Source: Pirellulales bacterium
GTDB taxonomy: Bacteria > Planctomycetota > Planctomycetia > Pirellulales > JALHPA01
NCBI GenBank assembly: GCA_041736895.1
Contig: JBGSSS010000213.1
Coordinates: 25,534-89,533, forward strand
Direction of reading: 5' to 3'
DNA length: 64,000 nt
The notes beneath the pieces were generated by a model. The model was not told where the DNA came from, made no database searches, and saw only the letters and a list, made by a program, of their open reading frames with translations. Position numbers and translations under genes: made by a program. Shown piece after piece: positions 1,109-55,144 of the stretch (the first letter of the stretch is position 1; every line of letters starts with the position of its first letter).

Positions 1109-1930
1109 ATGCGCACCAAACTCTTCGCGGAATTCATCGGCACCTTCATTCTGGTCTTTGCCGGGACGGCGGCAATTGTCTTCAATCACATGAGCAAGGA
1201 ACCCGTCCCCTTGCCGAACGTGCTTGCCAATCCCGCGGCACAACTCAATCCAGACTTGTTGAATCCCACTCAGTTCGCCAACCAAGTCGCAGCAAAACTT
1301 TCCGCACCCGCGAATCCGGGAGCGATCACTCATCCGGGCATCGCGCTCGTCTTTGGACTCGTCGTGCTGGCCATCGCGTACACGTTCGGCGATGTTTCTG
1401 GGGCGCACATCAACCCGGCGGTCACGCTGGGTTTTGCCGTCGCGCGGCGGTTTGCTTGGCGCGACGTCCCGGGTTACATCATCGCGCAGTGCCTGGGGGC
1501 GATTGCCGCGAGCGGCTTGCTCTTTGCCATGTTTCCACTTGGCAAAGCCGTCAACTTCGGCGCCACAACTCCGTTCAACTCGGCATATGGAGATGAATGC
1601 TGGGTGCTGGAGATTTGGCTCACTTGGGCGTTGATGCTGGTGATCCTGCATGTCTCGACCGGGGCCAAGGAAAAAGGAATCACCGCCGGCATCGCGGTCG
1701 GCGCGGTGATCGCGCTTGAAGCGCTCTTTGCCGGGCCGATCTGCGGCGCGTCGATGAACCCCGCTCGTTCGTTGGCCCCGGCTCTCTTCAGCGGTCCTGG
1801 CGCGGCGCGAGATTCGCTTTGGATCTACCTTTCGGGTCCGATCATCGGCGCGGTCCTCGCCGTGCCAACATTTGCATTGACTCGCCAGAGTGAGAAGAAA
1901 GAATCCGATGGGAAGCCGCAAAGTGAATGA
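1109..1930 (+). CDS. MIP/aquaporin family channel
   Basis: Two NPA boxes (HINPAVTLG and SMNPARSLAP), six hydrophobic segments; unusually long loop A. Confidence 0.9.
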   Translation: MRTKLFAEFIGTFILVFAGTAAIVFNHMSKEPVPLPNVLANPAAQLNPDLLNPTQFANQVAAKLSAPANPGAITHPGIALVFGLVVLAIAYTFGDVSGAHINPAVTLGFAVARRFAWRDVPGYIIAQCLGAIAASGLLFAMFPLGKAVNFGATTPFNSAYGDECWVLEIWLTWALMLVILHVSTGAKEKGITAGIAVGAVIALEALFAGPICGASMNPARSLAPALFSGPGAARDSLWIYLSGPIIGAVLAVPTFALTRQSEKKESDGKPQSE

Positions 1931-25967: not shown

Positions 25968-25995
25968 ATGCCCGCCGATACCATCGGCGGCTTTG
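25968..25995 (+). repeat. 28-nt palindromic repeat, intergenic copy
   Basis: ATGCCCGCCGATACCATCGGCGGCTTTG; core hairpin CCGCCGAT-acc-ATCGGCGG. Confidence 0.85.
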
Positions 25996-26116
25996 TTTTT
26001 CTTGCTCGGTTGCCAAATTGACAGTCTTTGTTTTCGCCCGCTGCGTAATTAACAACTTTACGCAACTTCTTATTCTGCTCGACCTTGCAACGACGCTATT
26101 GCCTCGAAATATCAAT

Positions 26117-26132
26117 TGGCACGGCTGTTGCA
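26117..26132 (+). promoter_or_regulatory. sigma-54 (-24/-12) promoter candidate for hsp20
   Basis: TGGCACGGCTGTTGCA matches TGGCACG-N4-TTGCA exactly, 148 nt upstream of the hsp20 ATG. Confidence 0.6.
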
Positions 26133-26279
26133 AATATTACTATGCATCGCGGCGATGACTGCAGCATTGGCCGCGAAGAACAATGCGATTGGTGATTCCG
26201 CAGTTTCGTGAAACAGCGTCGTTGAACGAACGGCCAGGAATCGTTTTTTCAACCATCATTTGCAATCGAGGCAAAGACT

Positions 26280-26774
26280 ATGTGGCAACTGCAACAACTT
26301 CAAAAACCGAATCGTGTTCATCAATTCTGGCCCCTCGCCGGCGAAGTCGATCGCTTCTTCGATCGTGTTTTCAATGCCGGGGCGGAAGCCACGGGCTGGG
26401 CTGCTCCGTTGGATCTCACCGAGAACGAGCAAGCGATCATGGTGCGGCTAGAAATCCCCGGCGTGCGCTCCGAAGATCTCGATATCCAAGTCGATCAGAA
26501 GAAGCTCACGATCAGCGGCGCGAAGCACGATCCCTACGCACCAGTTCAGCAAACTCCGAGTGCCGAAGGCGAAGCCCAAGCAGCTGTGGAAACTCCGGCC
26601 ATCAAATACCATCACCGCGAGACACGCTATGGCACATTCAGCCGCAGCGTGACGCTCCCTGATGGAAATTACACCGACGCGATCAAGGCCGACTACAGCA
26701 ACGGCGTCCTGGTCGTCACGCTCCCCAAAATTCCGGTCGAACCGGTCAAGAAGATTCAGGTCAACGCGAGCTAA
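26280..26774 (+). CDS. Hsp20/alpha-crystallin small heat-shock protein
   Basis: ACD pattern PLDLTENEQAIMVRLEIPGV...FSRSVTLP...YSNGVLVVTLPK. Confidence 0.9.
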   Translation: MWQLQQLQKPNRVHQFWPLAGEVDRFFDRVFNAGAEATGWAAPLDLTENEQAIMVRLEIPGVRSEDLDIQVDQKKLTISGAKHDPYAPVQQTPSAEGEAQAAVETPAIKYHHRETRYGTFSRSVTLPDGNYTDAIKADYSNGVLVVTLPKIPVEPVKKIQVNAS

Positions 26775-26801: not shown

Positions 26802-26848
26802 AAACGCCAACGCCCGCGAGGAAGCTCGCGGGCGTTGGCGTTTATTTG
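26802..26848 (+). terminator. intrinsic terminator of hsp20
   Basis: AAACGCCAACGCCCGCGAG-gaag-CTCGCGGGCGTTGGCGTTT followed by a T-rich tract. Confidence 0.8.
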
Positions 26849-28828: not shown

Positions 28829-28958
28829 GAGGGAGCACCAGAAAAAGCAGAGTACGCAGGTAGGCATAAAATTGGCAGGCGAGTGCATTATAAAGCAATC
28901 AGCCAGCCAATCCAGGAAGAGAGGCTAAATAATTTCAGCTTAGGAAAGCGTCTTGTGC

Positions 28959-35868: not shown

Positions 35869-36291
35869 TCACGCTCCCACTGGTTCTAGTTTCGCGGAAT
35901 CCTCGAGCAGACTTGCCAACTTGATCTTGTCGAGTTGAGCTCGCGTGGCGTCGGAAACTTTGTTCAAGGCACAGCGCAGCCGATCGTGGCAGTCTTGCGG
36001 CAGTTCGTCGCTGGCAACCGTTTTGCCGTTCAACGGGCCGTCGATGGCTTCGATGATTTCGAGCAACGAAATCTCACTCGGATCGCGATCAAGGGAATAA
36101 CCCCCTTCGACGCCGCGCGTGGATTGCAGGATGCCGTGGGTGACGAGACTACGAAGAATTTGGAGCAAGAACCGCTCCGGCATTCCGCCTTCGTTGGCCA
36201 ACCGGCTGCATGGGATTGGCTGGGAACTGGCGGTTTGAGCCAATTGCAGTGTGGCTTGCAGCGCGTAACTTACGGTACGAGAAAGCTTCAT
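35869..36291 (-). CDS. Rrf2 family transcriptional regulator
   Basis: MKLSRTVSYALQATLQLA N-terminus, wHTH LLQILRSLVTHGILQSTRGVEGGY. Confidence 0.85.
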   Translation of the reverse strand: MKLSRTVSYALQATLQLAQTASSQPIPCSRLANEGGMPERFLLQILRSLVTHGILQSTRGVEGGYSLDRDPSEISLLEIIEAIDGPLNGKTVASDELPQDCHDRLRCALNKVSDATRAQLDKIKLASLLEDSAKLEPVGA

Positions 36292-36663
36292 GACTCTCAC
36301 TTCCCCCTAAAAGTAGGAACCACCTTTGATTGGCAACTCGCATGTTTGATCCCAGGCCCCTGGCGATCCACCGTTCGTCCCTTTGCGAACGATGATCATG
36401 ATCCAAGCGACGAGTTTGCCACTCCACTCAATTCTTTGTCCAATGACTGAACTTCAGCGTGTCACAGCGCTGCCAAGACGGATCCAGGTTGATCCTCGCG
36501 GCAATGCTTTCCCCAAGCAGGCCATTGGAAGCATAGATCCCGGGCAATGAATCCCGAGATTCTCTATGCGCTTTATTCTTCGGCGGGAACGCGCAGAATA
36601 TTCCCGGATAATCCAGAAAATTATCCCAATCTATATTTGAAACAATCGTTTATTTCAGTTGTT

Positions 36664-49168: not shown

Positions 49169-49693
49169 CTACTCCGGCTTCTTGCTCACAATCACCTGCG
49201 CCGGGCGGATCGTGCGGTCATAGACTTTATAACCCGACGCCGCGACGACGAGCACCGTGTTCTCGGGATGATCGGGGCTTGGTTGTTGCATGATCGCTTG
49301 ATGGAAGTTCGGGTCGAACGGTTCGCCGATCATGCCGGTGCGCGTGCAATTGTGCTTGGCGAGGACTTCGGTCAACTGCGTCGAGACCATCTTCACGCCT
49401 TGGAGCAGCGACGACGTGTCGGCTTGCTTCGAGGCCGCTTCGATCGCGCGGTCGAGGTTATCGACGACCGGCAACAAGTCCGTGAGAAGCGAAACTTCGC
49501 GGTACTTCGAAAAGTCTTCTTGCTCGCGCTGGACGCGCTTGCGGAAGTTTTCGAGCTCGGCTTGCGCCCGCAATGCACGGTCTTTGGCAGCTTGCGCTTC
49601 TTCGCGCAGTTGCGCTAGCTCGCCTGCGGCATCGGGCGATTCCGGATCGATGGGGAAGGTTTGGTCGAGTTCGCTAGTATTGTCGGCGCTCAT
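49169..49693 (-). CDS. grpE: nucleotide exchange factor GrpE
   Basis: ELENFRKR...DNLDRA...[14 protein letters not shown] pattern; start overlaps dnaJ stop (ATGA). Confidence 0.92.
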
Positions 49694-50826
49694 GATGTGG
49701 GCGTTTCCTCAGAAGGCACAAAAAATTCTTTCAGGCGATCCAAAAACGTCTTGCGCTTGTGGGTCACGTTGACTTTCTCTTCACCGGCTAATTGTTCGAG
49801 TAGTTCCCGTTCCTTGGCAGTTAGCTTTTTCGGAACTTCGAGCACGACCTGGATCAGTTGATCCCCGCGGCCGCGTGCCCGCGGGTCGCGCATGCCGCGG
49901 CCCTTGAGCTTGAAGACATCGCCGGGCTGCGTGCCGGCGGGAATTTCGAGAGTTTCGGTGCCGTCGAGCGTGGGGACCTCGACCTTGGCTCCGAGCGCGG
50001 CTTGCGAGTACATGATCGGCAGTTGGCAGATCAGGTGCTGGCCCTCGCGTTGGAACAACGGGTGTTCCGTGACATGGACCAGGCAGTAACAATCGCCCGC
50101 CGGTCCGCCATCGGGACTCGGTTCGCCTTCGCCGGTGAGACGCATGCGCATCCCGTCGTCGATGCCGGACGGGATGGTGAGTTCCTTTTCAACTCGGATC
50201 GGATTGAAGCCCTTGCCGCTGCACTTCTTGCACTTGTCTTTGACGACCTGGCCTTTGCCGGAGCAGACGGGGCAAGTCGTCTGCACGCGGAAGATGCCGT
50301 TGCTTTGCACGACCTGGCCGCGGCCGCCGCAGTATTGGCACGACTGCATCTTCGTGCCGGGCTTTGCGCCGCTGCCGTCGCACGTTTCGCACTTTTCGTG
50401 GCGTTCGAATTCGATCGTCTTGGTTACCCCGCGCGCCGCTTCGAGCAAGTCGATCGTGATTTCGCAGCCGACGTCCGCGCCCTTACGCACGCGCCGCCCG
50501 CCGCGCTGGCCGAAGATATCGCCAAATGCTCCGCCGCCAAACAGATCGCCAAACGCGCTAAAAATATCGCCGAGGTCGTTGAACTGGTGCGTTTGGCCTT
50601 CGACGCCCGCGTGGCCGTAGCGGTCGTAGCGGGCACGCTTCTGCTCGTCGCTCAGGACTTCAAACGCTTCGGCCGCTTCTTTGAATTTGGCGATTGCTTC
50701 TTCGTTGCCGGGATTCTTGTCCGGGTGGTACTTGATCGCGAGTTTGCGATACGACGTGGAAATCTCGTCGCGCGTCGCCGTGCGGGTGACTTCGAGAATC
50801 TCGTAGTAACAACGTTTCGTCGCCAT
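49690..50826 (-). CDS. dnaJ: molecular chaperone DnaJ
   Basis: J-domain with HPDKN, G/F region, four CxxCxGxG repeats. Confidence 0.95.
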
Positions 50827-50874
50827 CAGTTCACCGTGACCGTGTGCTTCCGTGCGTACTTTCGTGAATCAAAA

Positions 50875-50901
50875 AGCCCAGGGGGCGGAGCCCCTGGGCT
50901 T
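50875..50901. repeat. hairpin family E (groEL1 terminator position)
   Basis: AGCCCAGGGGC-gga-GCCCCTGGGCTT, 37 nt downstream of the groEL1 stop. Confidence 0.75.
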
Positions 50902-50937: not shown

Positions 50938-52557
50938 TTAGCGGACCGAGCCTTCGGCGCGCGGCCCGTGCTTGTCTTCGGCTTCCAGGTTCGTGACCAG
51001 CGCTTCCGTCGTCAGCATCAGAGCGCTGATGCTGGCCGCGTTGCCTAGGGCACTGCGGACGACCTTGACCGGGTCGATGATGCCGGCCTTGAACATGTCG
51101 ACGTACTCGCCAGCGTTGGCGTCGTAGCCGATGTTCGTTGGCTTTTGCGAGACTTCGTCGGCGATCACACTGCCGTCGATGCCGCAGTTGTCGGCGATCT
51201 GACGGATCGGCGATTCGACGGCATGATAGATGATGCTCGCGCCGACCTTTTCGTCGCCCTTGAGCTTCGAGCGGACCGCGTCGATTGCTTCGCGGCAGCG
51301 GAGCAAGGCAACACCGCCGCCAGGCAAGATCCCTTCTTCAACGGCCGCACGCGTGGCGTGCAGGGCGTCTTCGACGCGGGCCTTCTTTTGCTTCATGTCG
51401 GCTTCGCTGTTCGCGCCGACCTTGATGATCGCGACGCCGCCGGTAAGCTTGGCCAGGCGTTCTTGGAACTTTTCCTTGTCGTATTCGCTCTCGGTTTGGT
51501 CGATTTGATTGCGAATTTGTTGGATGCGAGCTTGGATCTCGCTCGACTTGCCGCCGCCTTGGACGATCGTCGTGTCGCTCTTGTCGACGATGATTTGCTT
51601 AGCTTTGCCGAGGTGCGAGAGTTCGAGCGATTCGAGCTTGATGCCGAGATCTTCGCTGATCAGCGTGCCGCCGGTCACCGTGGCAATGTCGCCGAGCATC
51701 GCCTTGCGGCGATCGCCGAAGCCAGGCGCCTTGACCGCACAGACGTTCAAGATGCCGCGAAGTTTGTTGACGACGAGCGCGGTGAGCGCTTCGCCTTCGA
51801 CGTCTTCGGCGATGATCAAGAGCGGTTTGCTGGTGCCAGCGACTTGTTCCAGGATCGGAATCAATTCCCGCAGGTTGCTAATCTTCTTTTCGAAGATCAA
51901 GACCAGCGCGTCTTCGAGCAGACATTCCATGTCGGCCGTTTGATTGATGAAGTACGGCGAGACATAGCCCTTGTCGAATTGCATCCCTTCGACGAATTCG
52001 AGGGTCGTGTCGATGGTCTTGCCTTCTTCGACGGTGATGACGCCGTCCTTGCCGACCTTTTCCATCGCGTCCGCGAGCAGGTCGCCGATCGCCTTGTCGT
52101 TGTTCGCGCTGATCGCGCCGACTTGGCTGATTTCGGCCTTGCTGCTGACGGGCTTGCTCATCTTCTTGAGTTGTTCGACCGCGGCGTCAACGGCCTTGTC
52201 GATCCCGCGGCGTACGGCCATCGGGTTCGACCCGGCAGCAATCATCTTGGTCCCTTCCTTGAAGATCGCGCGGGCGAGAACGGTTGCGGTCGTCGTGCCG
52301 TCGCCGGCGATGTCGCTGGTCTTGCTGGCGACTTCATTGACGAGCTTCGCGCCCATGTTCTCGAAGCGATCTTCGAGGTCGATTTCCTTGCTCACGGTGA
52401 CGCCGTCCTTGGTAACCGTAGGGCCGCCAAAGGACTTGTTGATGATCACGTTGCGGCCGGTCGGGCCCATCGTGACCGCCACGGCAGCAGCCAATTTCTC
52501 GACGCCCTTGAGCATTTTCGCACGGGCGGAGTCTTCGAACAGCAATTGCTTGGGCAC
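50938..52557 (-). CDS. groL: chaperonin GroEL (paralogue 1, no GGM tail)
   Basis: Full GroEL pattern ([24 protein letters not shown]...). GTG 52557 gives [12 protein letters not shown]. Ends ...[13 protein letters not shown]. Confidence 0.95.
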
Positions 52558-52609
52558 TGGAGATTCCCTTGAAATATTTGAAGTGGAAGGTGTTTTGAGA
52601 TTCGGAATT

Positions 52610-52812
52610 GGACACTGATTTGACTGATGCAACTGATTTTCACTGATCAGTCAGGTTGTAGGTTTTAAGTTGTAGGTAATGAGCCATGACTGCATCTACT
52701 TACAACCTACTACCCATAACTTACAACCGGAACACTCCCTGGCTTACGCCGCGGGCTTTCAATGCGTTTGCTGATCAGTGTTAATCAGTTATATCCGCGT
52801 CATCCGTGTCCC
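52610..52812. repeat. composite palindrome family F (shell) with family H and a degenerate family A element inside, groES-groEL1 spacer
   Basis: GGACACTGATTTGACTGATGCAACTGATTTTCACTGATCAG ... TTTGCTGATCAGTGTTAATCAGTTATATCCGCGTCATCCGTGTCCC. Confidence 0.85.
52654..52728. repeat. long hairpin family H
   Basis: GGTTGTAGGTTTTAAGTTGTAGGTA ... TACTTACAACCTACTACCCATAACTTACAACC. Confidence 0.75.
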
Positions 52813-52826
52813 ATTCCGGAATTGAT

Positions 52827-53126
52827 TTAGGCGAGGACCTTGGCCAGGATGTCCGTTTCGCGGAGGATCTTGACTTCTTGGCCGTCGATTTCGATGTCGC
52901 TGCCGCTGTACTTGCCGAAGATCACTTCGTCACCAACAGCAACGCCGAGGGCGCCGCGGCTGCCGCTGTCGAGGAGCTTTCCGGGACCGACCGAGACGAC
53001 CTTGCCGCGTTGGGGCTTTTCCTTGGCGCTGTCTGGGAGGACGATGCCGCCGGCGGTCACCATTTCGGCTTCGAGGGTTTTGACAACAACACGATCATCG
53101 AGAGGACGGAGACGAAGATTGGCCAT
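52827..53126 (-). CDS. groES: co-chaperonin GroES
   Basis: [16 protein letters not shown]...[22 protein letters not shown]; ATG 53126. Confidence 0.95.
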
Positions 53127-53168
53127 GAGTAAGTTTCCTGTTATTGAAGTGAGTTGAGTGTTTGTTCT

Positions 53169-53194
53169 CGTTACCAAGCCCCAGCTTGGTAACG
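53169..53194. promoter_or_regulatory. inverted repeat CGTTACCAAG-N6-CTTGGTAACG, copy 1 (upstream of groES)
   Basis: Perfect 10-bp arms, 6-nt spacer, 43 nt upstream of the groES ATG. Confidence 0.45.
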
Positions 53195-53239
53195 TGGTCT
53201 AAAGTGACCGTTGATAATTGAAAGTCTTCTCGCAGTTCA

Positions 53240-53265
53240 CGTTACCAAGGTGGGCCTTGGTAACG
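53240..53265. promoter_or_regulatory. inverted repeat CGTTACCAAG-N6-CTTGGTAACG, copy 2 (just downstream of groEL2)
   Basis: Identical 10-bp arms and 6-nt spacing, 24 nt after the groEL2 stop; may also act as a terminator. Confidence 0.45.
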
Positions 53266-53288
53266 AGTTGTTGCAGGACTCGCCTTGC

Positions 53289-54980
53289 TTACATCATGCC
53301 GGGCATTCCGCCCATGCCGCCCATTCCGGGCATGCCACCCATGCCGCCACCGCCCATGCCGTGGTCGTGGTGGTCGTGATCGCCGCCTTCGTCCTTCGCG
53401 GCGGGGATGTCGCAGATTAGCGATTCGGTGGTGAGCAATAGTGCGGCAACGCTCGCCGCGTTTTGCAGTGCGATGCGGACAACCTTGGCCGGGTCGATGA
53501 CGCCGGCGGCAACCATGTCGCCGTATACATCCTTGTCGGCGTCGTAGCCATCGTTCTTGCCCTTGAGCTGACGCACACGATTCACAACGACAGCGCCGTC
53601 GAGACCGGCGTTTTCGGCAATCGCCCGCAGCGGCATGTCGAGGACGTTCTTGATGATCCGCGCGCCGTGACCTTCGTCACCTTCGAGAGCCAACTTGTCG
53701 ATAGCTTTGTCGCAACGCATCAGAGCGACACCGCCGCCAGGAACGATGCCTTCGGAAAGAGCAGCCTGAGTCGCCTTTTGGGCGTCTTCGATCAGGTACT
53801 TCTTTTCCTTCATTTCGGTTTCGGTCGCGGCACCGACATTGATTTGAGCCACGCCGCCAGCGAGCTTCGCCAGACGTTCTTGCAGCTTCTCGCGGTCGTA
53901 TTCGCTGTCGGTCTTGGTGATCTCTTGGCGAATTTGTTCCGCGCGGCCGGTGATTTCTTCCTTCTTACCGGCTCCGCTCACCACGGTCGTGTTTTCGCTC
54001 GTGATGTGGAACTTCTTGGCGCGGCCGAGGTCGCTTAGCTTGATCGCTTCGAGTTGAATGCCGAGGTCTTTGTAAATGGCCGTCGCGCCAGTCAGCACGG
54101 CGATGTCGCCGAGGATCGCTTTGCGGCGGTCGCCGTAGCCAGGAGCCTTGACGGCGCAGACATTCAAGATGCCGCGGAGCTTGTTGACGACGAGAGTCGC
54201 GAGCGCTTCGCCTTCGATGTCTTCGGCAATGATCAAGAGGGGCTTGCCCGACTTGCTGATCGCTTCGAGCAGCGGGACGAGCGACTTGGCGTTGCTGATC
54301 TTTTCTTCGTAGATCAGGACATACGGATTGTCGAGTTCCACCGTTTGTTCGTCAGCATTGGTGACGAAGTGCGGCGAGAGATAGCCGCGGTCGAATTGCA
54401 TCCCTTCGACGACGTCAACGGTCGTTTCGGATTGCTTCCCTTCTTCGATCGTGATGACGCCGTCCTTGCCGACCTTCAAAAAGGCTTCGGCCAGGACTTC
54501 GCCGATCGACGGGTCGTTGTTCCCGGCGATCGTGGCGATCTGCATGATTTCTTTTTTGTTCTTGTCGCTGATCGGCGTCGCCATCTTGGTAATGGCATCG
54601 CTGACGGCCGTGACGGCTTTTTGAATGCCGCGCGAGAGAGCCATTGGGTCGGCGCCGGCGGCGATCATCTTGATGCCTTCGCGGAAGATGGCTTCGGCGA
54701 GGACCGTGGCGGTCGTGGTGCCGTCGCCTGCGACCTTGTCGGTCTTGCTGGCGGCTTCCTTGATCAGTTGCGCGCCGAGGTTTTCATATGGATCATCGAG
54801 ATCGATGTCTTCGGCGACCGTGACGCCGTCCTTGGTCACCTTGGGCGAGCCCCAACCTTTGTCGAGAACCGCATTGCGGCCGCGGGGGCCGAGTGTGCTG
54901 CGGACTGCCCGAGCCAGCTTCGACGCTCCAGCCAGCAGCGGCTGGCGAGCATCGTCATTGAAAACCATCTGCTTTGCCAC
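53289..54980 (-). CDS. groL: chaperonin GroEL (paralogue 2, His-rich + GGM tail)
   Basis: [12 protein letters not shown]..., full GroEL pattern, C-tail [32 protein letters not shown]; GTG start. Confidence 0.95.
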
Positions 54981-55144
54981 GAGAGAATCCTCCGGGGTAT
55001 GTGCGAATCAACGCAGTCGAACGAAACAAGATTTGTGCGGGTGTAGGCAGCGAAATCGGCCGGAGAGCTTGCGTTTGGCAAGCTAGGCAATTTCTGTTGC
55101 TGTGGGCCAAACTGGCAGACGCCAGATTGGTTGGCAAGAAAGGA

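Follow-up and report, generated by a model that had tools for sequence, protein, structure and literature searches.

Candidate sigma-54 promoters with a shared upstream palindrome precede hsp20 and a chaperonin operon in a Pirellula-like planctomycete

We examined a 64-kb stretch of bacterial DNA (the window) with a GC content of 56.6%. It has a planctomycete look: the best relatives of its GroEL proteins are labelled Pirellula sp., Pirellulales or Planctomycetota, and sulfatases (several) and a DUF1559/N-methyl protein are encoded in it. Its small heat-shock gene, hsp20, is a 164-aa coding sequence at 26280–26774 (+), with its ATG at 26280 and a Pfam HSP20 match (E 2.1e-19). It lies in the order DHDPS–hsp20–GSHPx–beta-lactamase, which is common to all hsp20 orthologues retrieved. 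Upstream, a predicted intrinsic terminator of the DHDPS-family gene (25972–26000, +), comprising an 8-bp GC-rich stem and a T run, shields hsp20 from read-through. A second, likely terminator lies 3′ of hsp20 (26806–26848, +), where an inverted repeat forms a long GC-rich hairpin, GCCAACGCCCGCGAG-GAAG-CTCGCGGGCGTTGGC, followed by the T-rich tail GTTTATTTG; this one was read straight off the sequence and is absent from the output of the consensus scan. Because terminators flank it on both sides, hsp20 is probably monocistronic.

The minus strand carries a chaperone cluster in the order groEL1, groES, groEL2, dnaJ, grpE and a zinc-ribbon gene. Both groEL1 (53289–54980, −; GTG start) and groEL2 (50938–52632 as the longest ORF, −) match Pfam Cpn60_TCP1, and groES (52827–53177 as the longest ORF, −) matches Cpn10. 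They are followed by dnaJ (49690–50826, −; Pfam DnaJ, DnaJ_C and DnaJ_CXXCXGXG) and grpE (49169–49693, −; Pfam GrpE). The groEL1 start is a GTG (54969–54980, −; VAKQMVFN...) conserved in all six orthologues with GGAGGA upstream; the database annotation of the identical protein, P0108, begins at an internal ATG and is four codons shorter. The groEL–groES–groEL order recurs in loci L092–L095, and the second sigma-54 site described below probably drives groEL1–groES–groEL2 (50938–54980, −) as one transcription unit. Between groEL2 and dnaJ, we located a strong intrinsic terminator (50874–50901, −), with an 11-bp stem that includes eight GC pairs and is followed by TTTGATT. Expression of dnaJ–grpE from the sigma-54 promoter would therefore need read-through, and the six-gene cluster is probably split into two transcription units, or else forms an operon with attenuation. 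Given this terminator, dnaJ–grpE may fall outside the groEL–groES–groEL unit; a search of the 111-nt gap ahead of dnaJ found no sigma-54 motif.

Upstream of hsp20, the sequence TGGCACGGCTGTTGCA (26117–26132, +) matches the sigma-54 −24/−12 consensus TGGCACG-N4-TTGCW at all fixed positions, with the GG at 26118–26119 and the GC at 26130–26131. The preliminary description had reported a perfect motif 148 nt upstream of the hsp20 ATG, and the motif does end at that distance. The window holds a single copy of the full consensus, where dinucleotide-preserving shuffles predict 0.01. A second element, TGGCACACCGCTTGCA (55160–55145, −), has the form TGGCAC-N5-TTGCA, with GG and GC spanning 55159–55146, and sits 165 nt before the groEL1 GTG. 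Its position 7 is A, and because this A replaces G, the element falls short of the full TGGCACG-N4-TTGCW consensus. The earlier claim of two matches before heat-shock genes thus stands as to location, since both precede chaperone genes, but not as to perfection, since the second is not a perfect TGGCACG match. The 10-base core TGGCAC-N5-TTGC is found exactly twice in the window versus 0.17 expected, a count of two that only one of 100 shuffles reached. At both sites the GG and GC doublets are 10 bp apart. Both elements are intergenic and directed at chaperone genes, and the genes downstream are assigned to that class by Pfam (HSP20, Cpn60, Cpn10, Cpn60, DnaJ, GrpE). From the position of the elements, transcription is predicted to start at about 26143 (+) for hsp20 and at about 55134 (−) for the chaperonin operon.

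Elsewhere in the window, one-mismatch variants of the motif remain at chance level (7 versus 4.85 expected). Two near-matches were considered and dropped. One, TGGCAACCGTTTTGC at 36012, falls within the coding sequence of an Rrf2-family gene that runs the other way. The other, TGGCTGGCTGATTGCT at 28909 (−), precedes the beta-lactamase-family gene, whose orthologues keep a TATAAT box and not the GG/GC doublets. At the first of these places, the longest-ORF call (35935–36450, +) is spurious; the true gene is the Rrf2-family regulator at 35869–36291 (−), as in the syntenic locus L002.

Conservation was assessed in two sets of upstream regions. The hsp20 set comprises seven distinct syntenic orthologues from related uncultured planctomycetes, with 63–93% protein identity. 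The groEL set comprises six regions, including five orthologues (L013 and L092–L095) with 78–88% GroEL identity and the order groEL–groES–groEL–dnaJ–grpE. An Hsp20 search of genome contigs returned nothing but an unrelated Bacteroidales locus. A GroEL search of metagenomes returned mostly GroELs of about 60% identity from other lineages; L013 was the only usable close orthologue, and the rest served as negative controls.

GGCAC-N5-TTGC is kept in 13 of 13 upstream regions (7/7 hsp20, 6/6 groEL) despite diverged flanks. Among the seven hsp20 orthologues, TGGCACG-N4-TTGCAAA is invariant in the intergenic alignment, and most of the DNA further upstream is scrambled. The groEL upstream alignment has a mean column identity of 44%, and full invariance is confined there to (T/C)GGCAC-N5-TTGC, a CTGCC...GRCA stretch, the Shine–Dalgarno (SD) sequence and the start codon. 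Across the 754 kb examined on both strands, the strict form TGGCAC-N5-TTGC occurs 17 times, and 16 of these matches stand directly before hsp20 or groEL orthologues, each accompanied by the palindrome described below. Of 80 GroEL-encoding metagenome loci, only L043 and L064, besides the orthologue L013, have a good match within 700 nt upstream. Conservation in front of orthologous genes, which the preliminary description had named in advance as one of three points on which its proposal could fail, speaks strongly in favor of the motif.

Locus L064 comes from an unrelated lineage with 52% GC. It carries the sigma-54 motif TGGCACAGATTTTGCC at 1420–1435 (+) between lon and groES–groEL, 54 nt before the groES start, and lacks the planctomycete palindrome. 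Judging from this arrangement, groESL may have come under sigma-54 control on several occasions, or another activator may be used in that lineage.

The second element shared by the two sets is a palindrome, TGCC-N5-GRCA, present in 13 of 13 regions with its start 93–118 bp upstream of the GG on which the regions were anchored. Its consensus is (C/T)TGCCAA-N3-TGRCA. In the hsp20 set the offset is constant among orthologues, at 106–107 bp upstream of the GG; in the groEL set the spacing is variable (93–117 bp), and helical phase is only loosely kept across the regions. The hsp20 copy in the window, TGCCAAATTGACA (26011–26023, +), is an invariant alignment block and a candidate enhancer, or upstream activating sequence (UAS). 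The candidate enhancer of groEL, TGCCAAAACGGCA (55273–55261, −), starts 114 bp upstream of the GG. These two copies are the best matches in the 64 kb to a position weight matrix (PWM) built from these same sites (22.2 and 18.3 bits, respectively). The 8-mer CTGCCAAA occurs in six of six groEL regions versus none expected from shuffles.

More distant loci retain related arrangements. In L014 (3787–3892; 68% GroEL identity), the palindrome CTGCCAAAAAGGCAG accompanies the variant promoter motif cGGTAC-N5-CTTGCA, and in L059 (3685–3836; 61% GroEL identity), two CTGCCARAA copies accompany TGGTAT-N5-TTGCA. Both loci keep CTGCCAAA-type palindromes upstream of variant −24/−12 boxes, so that conservation of the enhancer motif matches or exceeds that of the promoter itself. 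The position and conservation of the palindrome fit an enhancer for one shared sigma-54 activator. Lying about 100 bp upstream, common to two unlinked operons and deeply kept, it looks like the site of a single cognate bacterial enhancer-binding protein (bEBP). We found no description of this shared motif in the open literature searched.

Between the palindrome and each promoter lies a further inverted repeat, GCAAC-N17-CTTGC. The hsp20 copy (26062–26088, +) coincides with the conserved columns CGyAAcTTCTT and CTTGC of the hsp20 alignment. The groEL copy (55205–55179, −) is 10 bp closer to its promoter and has an orthologue consensus of approximately CGCAAGTC-N16-GACTTGCG; its arms change together in some lineages (TAAGTC/GACTTA). 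Such a repeat might be the site of a bending protein or of a second regulator. In addition, a UAS-like site, CTGCCAGTTTGGCCC (55104–55118, −; PWM score 13.1), lies within the transcribed part of the groEL upstream region, at about +17 relative to the predicted transcription start. In the five other groEL orthologues (L013, L092–L095), a pattern search found a half-site, TGCCA(A/C) or TTGGCA, at +42 to +49 counted from the GG; the copy in the window (TGCCAG) was detected by the PWM only. Over all groEL leaders the position is fixed at +41 to +49. The leader site could bind an activator downstream of the start, could be a repressor operator, or could work as an RNA element.

The predicted hsp20 leader (26143–26279, +), about 137 nt long and ending in the SD sequence GAGG, is very highly conserved, more so than the DNA upstream of the promoter. 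Runs that are invariant across the seven orthologues include CATCGCGGCGATGACTGCAGCATTG, GATTCC...GGAATCGTTT(T/C)TTC and GAGGCAA, and the leader holds two invariant helices, GCGGCGAUG/CAUUGnCCGC and GAUUCC/GGAAUC. It is likely to have some function at the RNA or DNA level. An Rfam search of the leader, with ROSE and other thermometers included, returned no family at the gathering threshold or at E ≤ 1. Its folding energy does not stand out from that of shuffled sequences (z = 0.5), compensatory change affects only 2 of 34 base pairs, and the predicted masking of the SD sequence is inconsistent among orthologues and barely altered between 25 and 42 °C. On these four counts, an RNA thermometer is unsupported. 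Leaders of this length (137 nt for hsp20, about 154 nt for groEL) leave room for other promoters or for RNA-level control.

We weighed several other explanations of the two sites. A GC-rich 16-mer might recur by chance and have no promoter function, in keeping with the base composition of the window and the unremarkable number of one-mismatch variants. The expectation for exact matches is far below one, however, the motif is invariant in all 13 diverged orthologous regions, and 16 of the 17 strict matches precede hsp20 or groEL; invariance across the orthologues effectively refutes chance, to which we assign a negligible probability. A promoter of the sigma-70 family (housekeeping, ECF or sigma-32-like) could instead overlap the motif, and precisely at the hsp20 site a sigma-70-like TTGGCA-16-TACTAT (26116–26143) matches 9 of 12 consensus positions. 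Its −10 hexamer is unconserved, reading TACTAT, CGATTC, AACTCT, CACTTC or CGCTAC among orthologues, whereas the TTGC within the would-be spacer is invariant, and we therefore discarded the sigma-70 interpretation for hsp20. Nothing like this −10 hexamer is present at the groEL site, and in the orthologue alignments no sigma-70 −10 box is conserved before either hsp20 or groEL. At the beta-lactamase-family gene (28888–28920, −), a true TATAAT box is conserved in all orthologues (L002, L006, L007 and L008), which indicates that this lineage conserves a −10 box where a sigma-70 promoter is used. We regard a sigma-70-family promoter as very improbable. (The 413-aa ORF call for the beta-lactamase-family gene probably starts too early, because its orthologues are 393–395 aa long.)

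Two further alternatives accept much of the sigma-54 assignment and shift the control elsewhere. The promoters could be genuine sigma-54 promoters while heat control comes from a repressor, a functional analogue of HrcA/CIRCE or HspR/HAIR, that uses the palindrome as its operator; the upstream and leader copies of the palindrome would cooperate by looping, and the bEBP would then bind elsewhere, for example at GCAAC-N17-CTTGC. The related site or half-site fixed at about +17 in groEL leaders is at a typical repressor position, and the classical operators are absent: neither CIRCE (TTAGCACTC-N9-GAGTGCTAA) nor HAIR (CTTGAGT-N7-ACTCAAG) has a match with up to three mismatches in the 64-kb window. 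Yet the best-conserved copy of the palindrome is always found 93–118 bp upstream, at the spacing classically seen for enhancers; the hsp20 leader shows only a weak resemblance, CTGCAGCATTGGCC, below the PWM cut-off, and sigma-54 promoters require an activator site regardless. We consider a repressor operator unlikely. Heat control of hsp20 might also be mainly post-transcriptional: the 137-nt leader would sense temperature as an RNA thermometer or would stabilize the message, which leaves only basal or general-stress transcription to the promoter. The strong conservation of the leader and its invariant helices point that way, but the Rfam, folding-energy, SD-masking and covariation results above point against it, and we judge this explanation decidedly unlikely; it is in any case compatible with sigma-54 transcription of the gene.

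We therefore return to sigma-54. Motif, position, orientation, deep conservation, shared palindrome and absence of classical operators are all directly established. We consider it likely that both sites are functional sigma-54 (RpoN) promoters of one chaperone regulon in a Pirellula-like planctomycete. The earlier reading of them as sigma-54-type chaperone promoters gains support from conservation among orthologues, from the palindrome at enhancer distance and from the lack of conservation of the sigma-70 reading. A conserved sigma-54 promoter combined with a shared enhancer-like palindrome suggests that chaperone induction most likely proceeds via an ATP-dependent activator. By Pfam annotation, the 64-kb window contains neither rpoN nor a gene with a Sigma54_activat domain, the mark of a bEBP, and no bEBP gene adjoins the targets, either here or among the genes listed for orthologue loci L002–L011 and L092–L095.

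From these features we infer sigma-54 binding, the identity of the activator as a bEBP, the transcription starts, heat induction and the route of the signal, and we propose the following mechanism. Sigma-54 RNA polymerase would occupy the GG(−24)/GC(−12) doublets at 26118–26131 (+) and 55159–55146 (−) as a closed complex that does not open by itself. An AAA+ bEBP encoded outside the window would bind the upstream TGCCAA-N3-T(T/G)GRCA palindrome, reach the polymerase by DNA looping, possibly aided by a protein on the GCAAC-N17-CTTGC block, and open the promoter with ATP. Starts at about 26143 and about 55134 would yield, respectively, an mRNA of hsp20 alone, headed by the conserved leader of about 137 nt, and a groEL–groES–groEL mRNA with partial read-through into dnaJ–grpE. 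The heat or unfolded-protein signal would act on bEBP activity and not on the amount of sigma-54. More speculatively, one dedicated bEBP recognizing TGCCAA-N3-TTGRCA could act as master regulator of the heat-shock response in Pirellula-like planctomycetes, and possibly in many others, in place of sigma-32, HrcA and HspR, with chaperone feedback and a composite enhancer/operator that takes in the leader site and GCAAC-N17-CTTGC; we hold this extension to be possible, if on balance somewhat doubtful. We know of no sigma-54 system with a composite enhancer/operator architecture of this kind.

The idea of a sigma-54 chaperone regulon in this group has a precedent. A 2025 PLoS One survey of 1,414 genomes with position-specific scoring matrices found predicted sigma-54 promoters significantly enriched before the genes for GroEL (COG0459), IbpA/Hsp20 (COG0071), GroES, GrpE, DnaJ and DnaK (PMC12316311). 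The enrichment was seen in Planctomycetota, mainly Planctomycetia, and in Bacteroidota, and was weaker in Phycisphaerae (PMC12316311). A single rpoN copy was present in 32 of 33 Planctomycetia genomes, with about 20 bEBPs in each (PMC12316311 supplement). As a computational trend, then, the regulon had been put forward before, and both sites described here exemplify it. The survey draws its statistics from whole COGs and cites no experimental validation in planctomycetes; we found no palindrome, intermediate inverted repeat, leader site or conserved hsp20 leader described in it. Novelty is modest: the locus is a clean case of a pattern already predicted in silico and adds a defined composite regulatory architecture. 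That architecture is concrete, with two promoters, one deeply conserved enhancer motif usable to find the activator, and defined bases to mutate. The preliminary description had called a sigma-54 chaperone regulon unusual, which overstates the case in view of the enrichment in Planctomycetia (PMC12316311) and of the known examples of E. coli ibpB and Myxococcus lonD.

Our search of the open literature found no experimental work on sigma-54 control of chaperones in planctomycetes. Expression data are available from a Rhodopirellula baltica microarray, in which RB8966 (cpn60), RB8969 (cpn10), RB8970 (groEL), RB8972 (dnaJ) and RB8974 (grpE) were heat-induced, as were the Hsp20 genes RB10279 and RB10283; rpoN (RB6491) was not heat-regulated (PMC2754498). 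The genes RB8966–RB8974 share the order groEL–groES–groEL–dnaJ–grpE with the cluster in the window and look orthologous to it. Because the chaperone operon and the Hsp20 genes respond to heat in R. baltica and rpoN does not, the signal would be expected to pass through the activator. Conversely, the proposed mechanism offers a rationale for why R. baltica rpoN is not heat-regulated while its chaperone operons are.

Experimentally studied systems in other phyla bear on parts of this picture. A sigma-54 promoter acts on the Hsp20-family gene ibpB of E. coli, and its DNA was recovered in anti-sigma-54 ChIP (Kuczynska-Wisnik et al. 2001, as cited in PMC2831329). The likeness is that a small heat-shock gene is read from a sigma-54 promoter. 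The E. coli promoter, however, is accessory and internal to the sigma-32-driven ibpAB operon, with the weak motif TGGTAA-N5-TTGCT, and E. coli groESL and dnaK depend on sigma-32, whereas here the principal conserved promoter of hsp20, and likewise that of groEL, appears to be of the sigma-54 type. In Myxococcus xanthus, the HsfB/HsfA phosphorelay includes the NtrC-like HsfA, which directly activates lonD (Ueki and Inouye 2002, as cited in PMC9109919). HsfA and lonD are the best experimental model of how the system here may work. Myxococcus belongs to another phylum, however, the target is the Lon protease, and the HsfA regulon also takes in secondary metabolism and pili.

A mechanistic parallel comes from PspF and PspA, a sigma-54 stress regulon in which a bEBP acts on upstream enhancers and is inhibited by a product of the regulon until stress titrates that product away. 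The psp system responds to envelope stress and not to protein-folding stress, and there are no psp genes here, so that the analogy is purely mechanistic; on that footing, a PspF-like titration logic is plausible for chaperone feedback. Textbook heat-shock control relies on sigma-32 or on the repressors HrcA and HspR. Core chaperones on sigma-54 promoters would, if the assignment is true, represent a third solution, because such promoters are silent without an ATP-hydrolyzing activator, and the question would then be by what means unfolded protein is sensed by an AAA+ activator. The classical systems of sigma-32 (RpoH), HrcA/CIRCE and HspR/HAIR share their target genes, groESL, dnaJ–grpE and hsp20, with the regulon proposed here. 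They differ from it in their signals on the DNA: in place of CIRCE, HAIR or conserved sigma-70-family hexamers, the planctomycete locus carries promoters for which we propose ATP-dependent opening from an enhancer.
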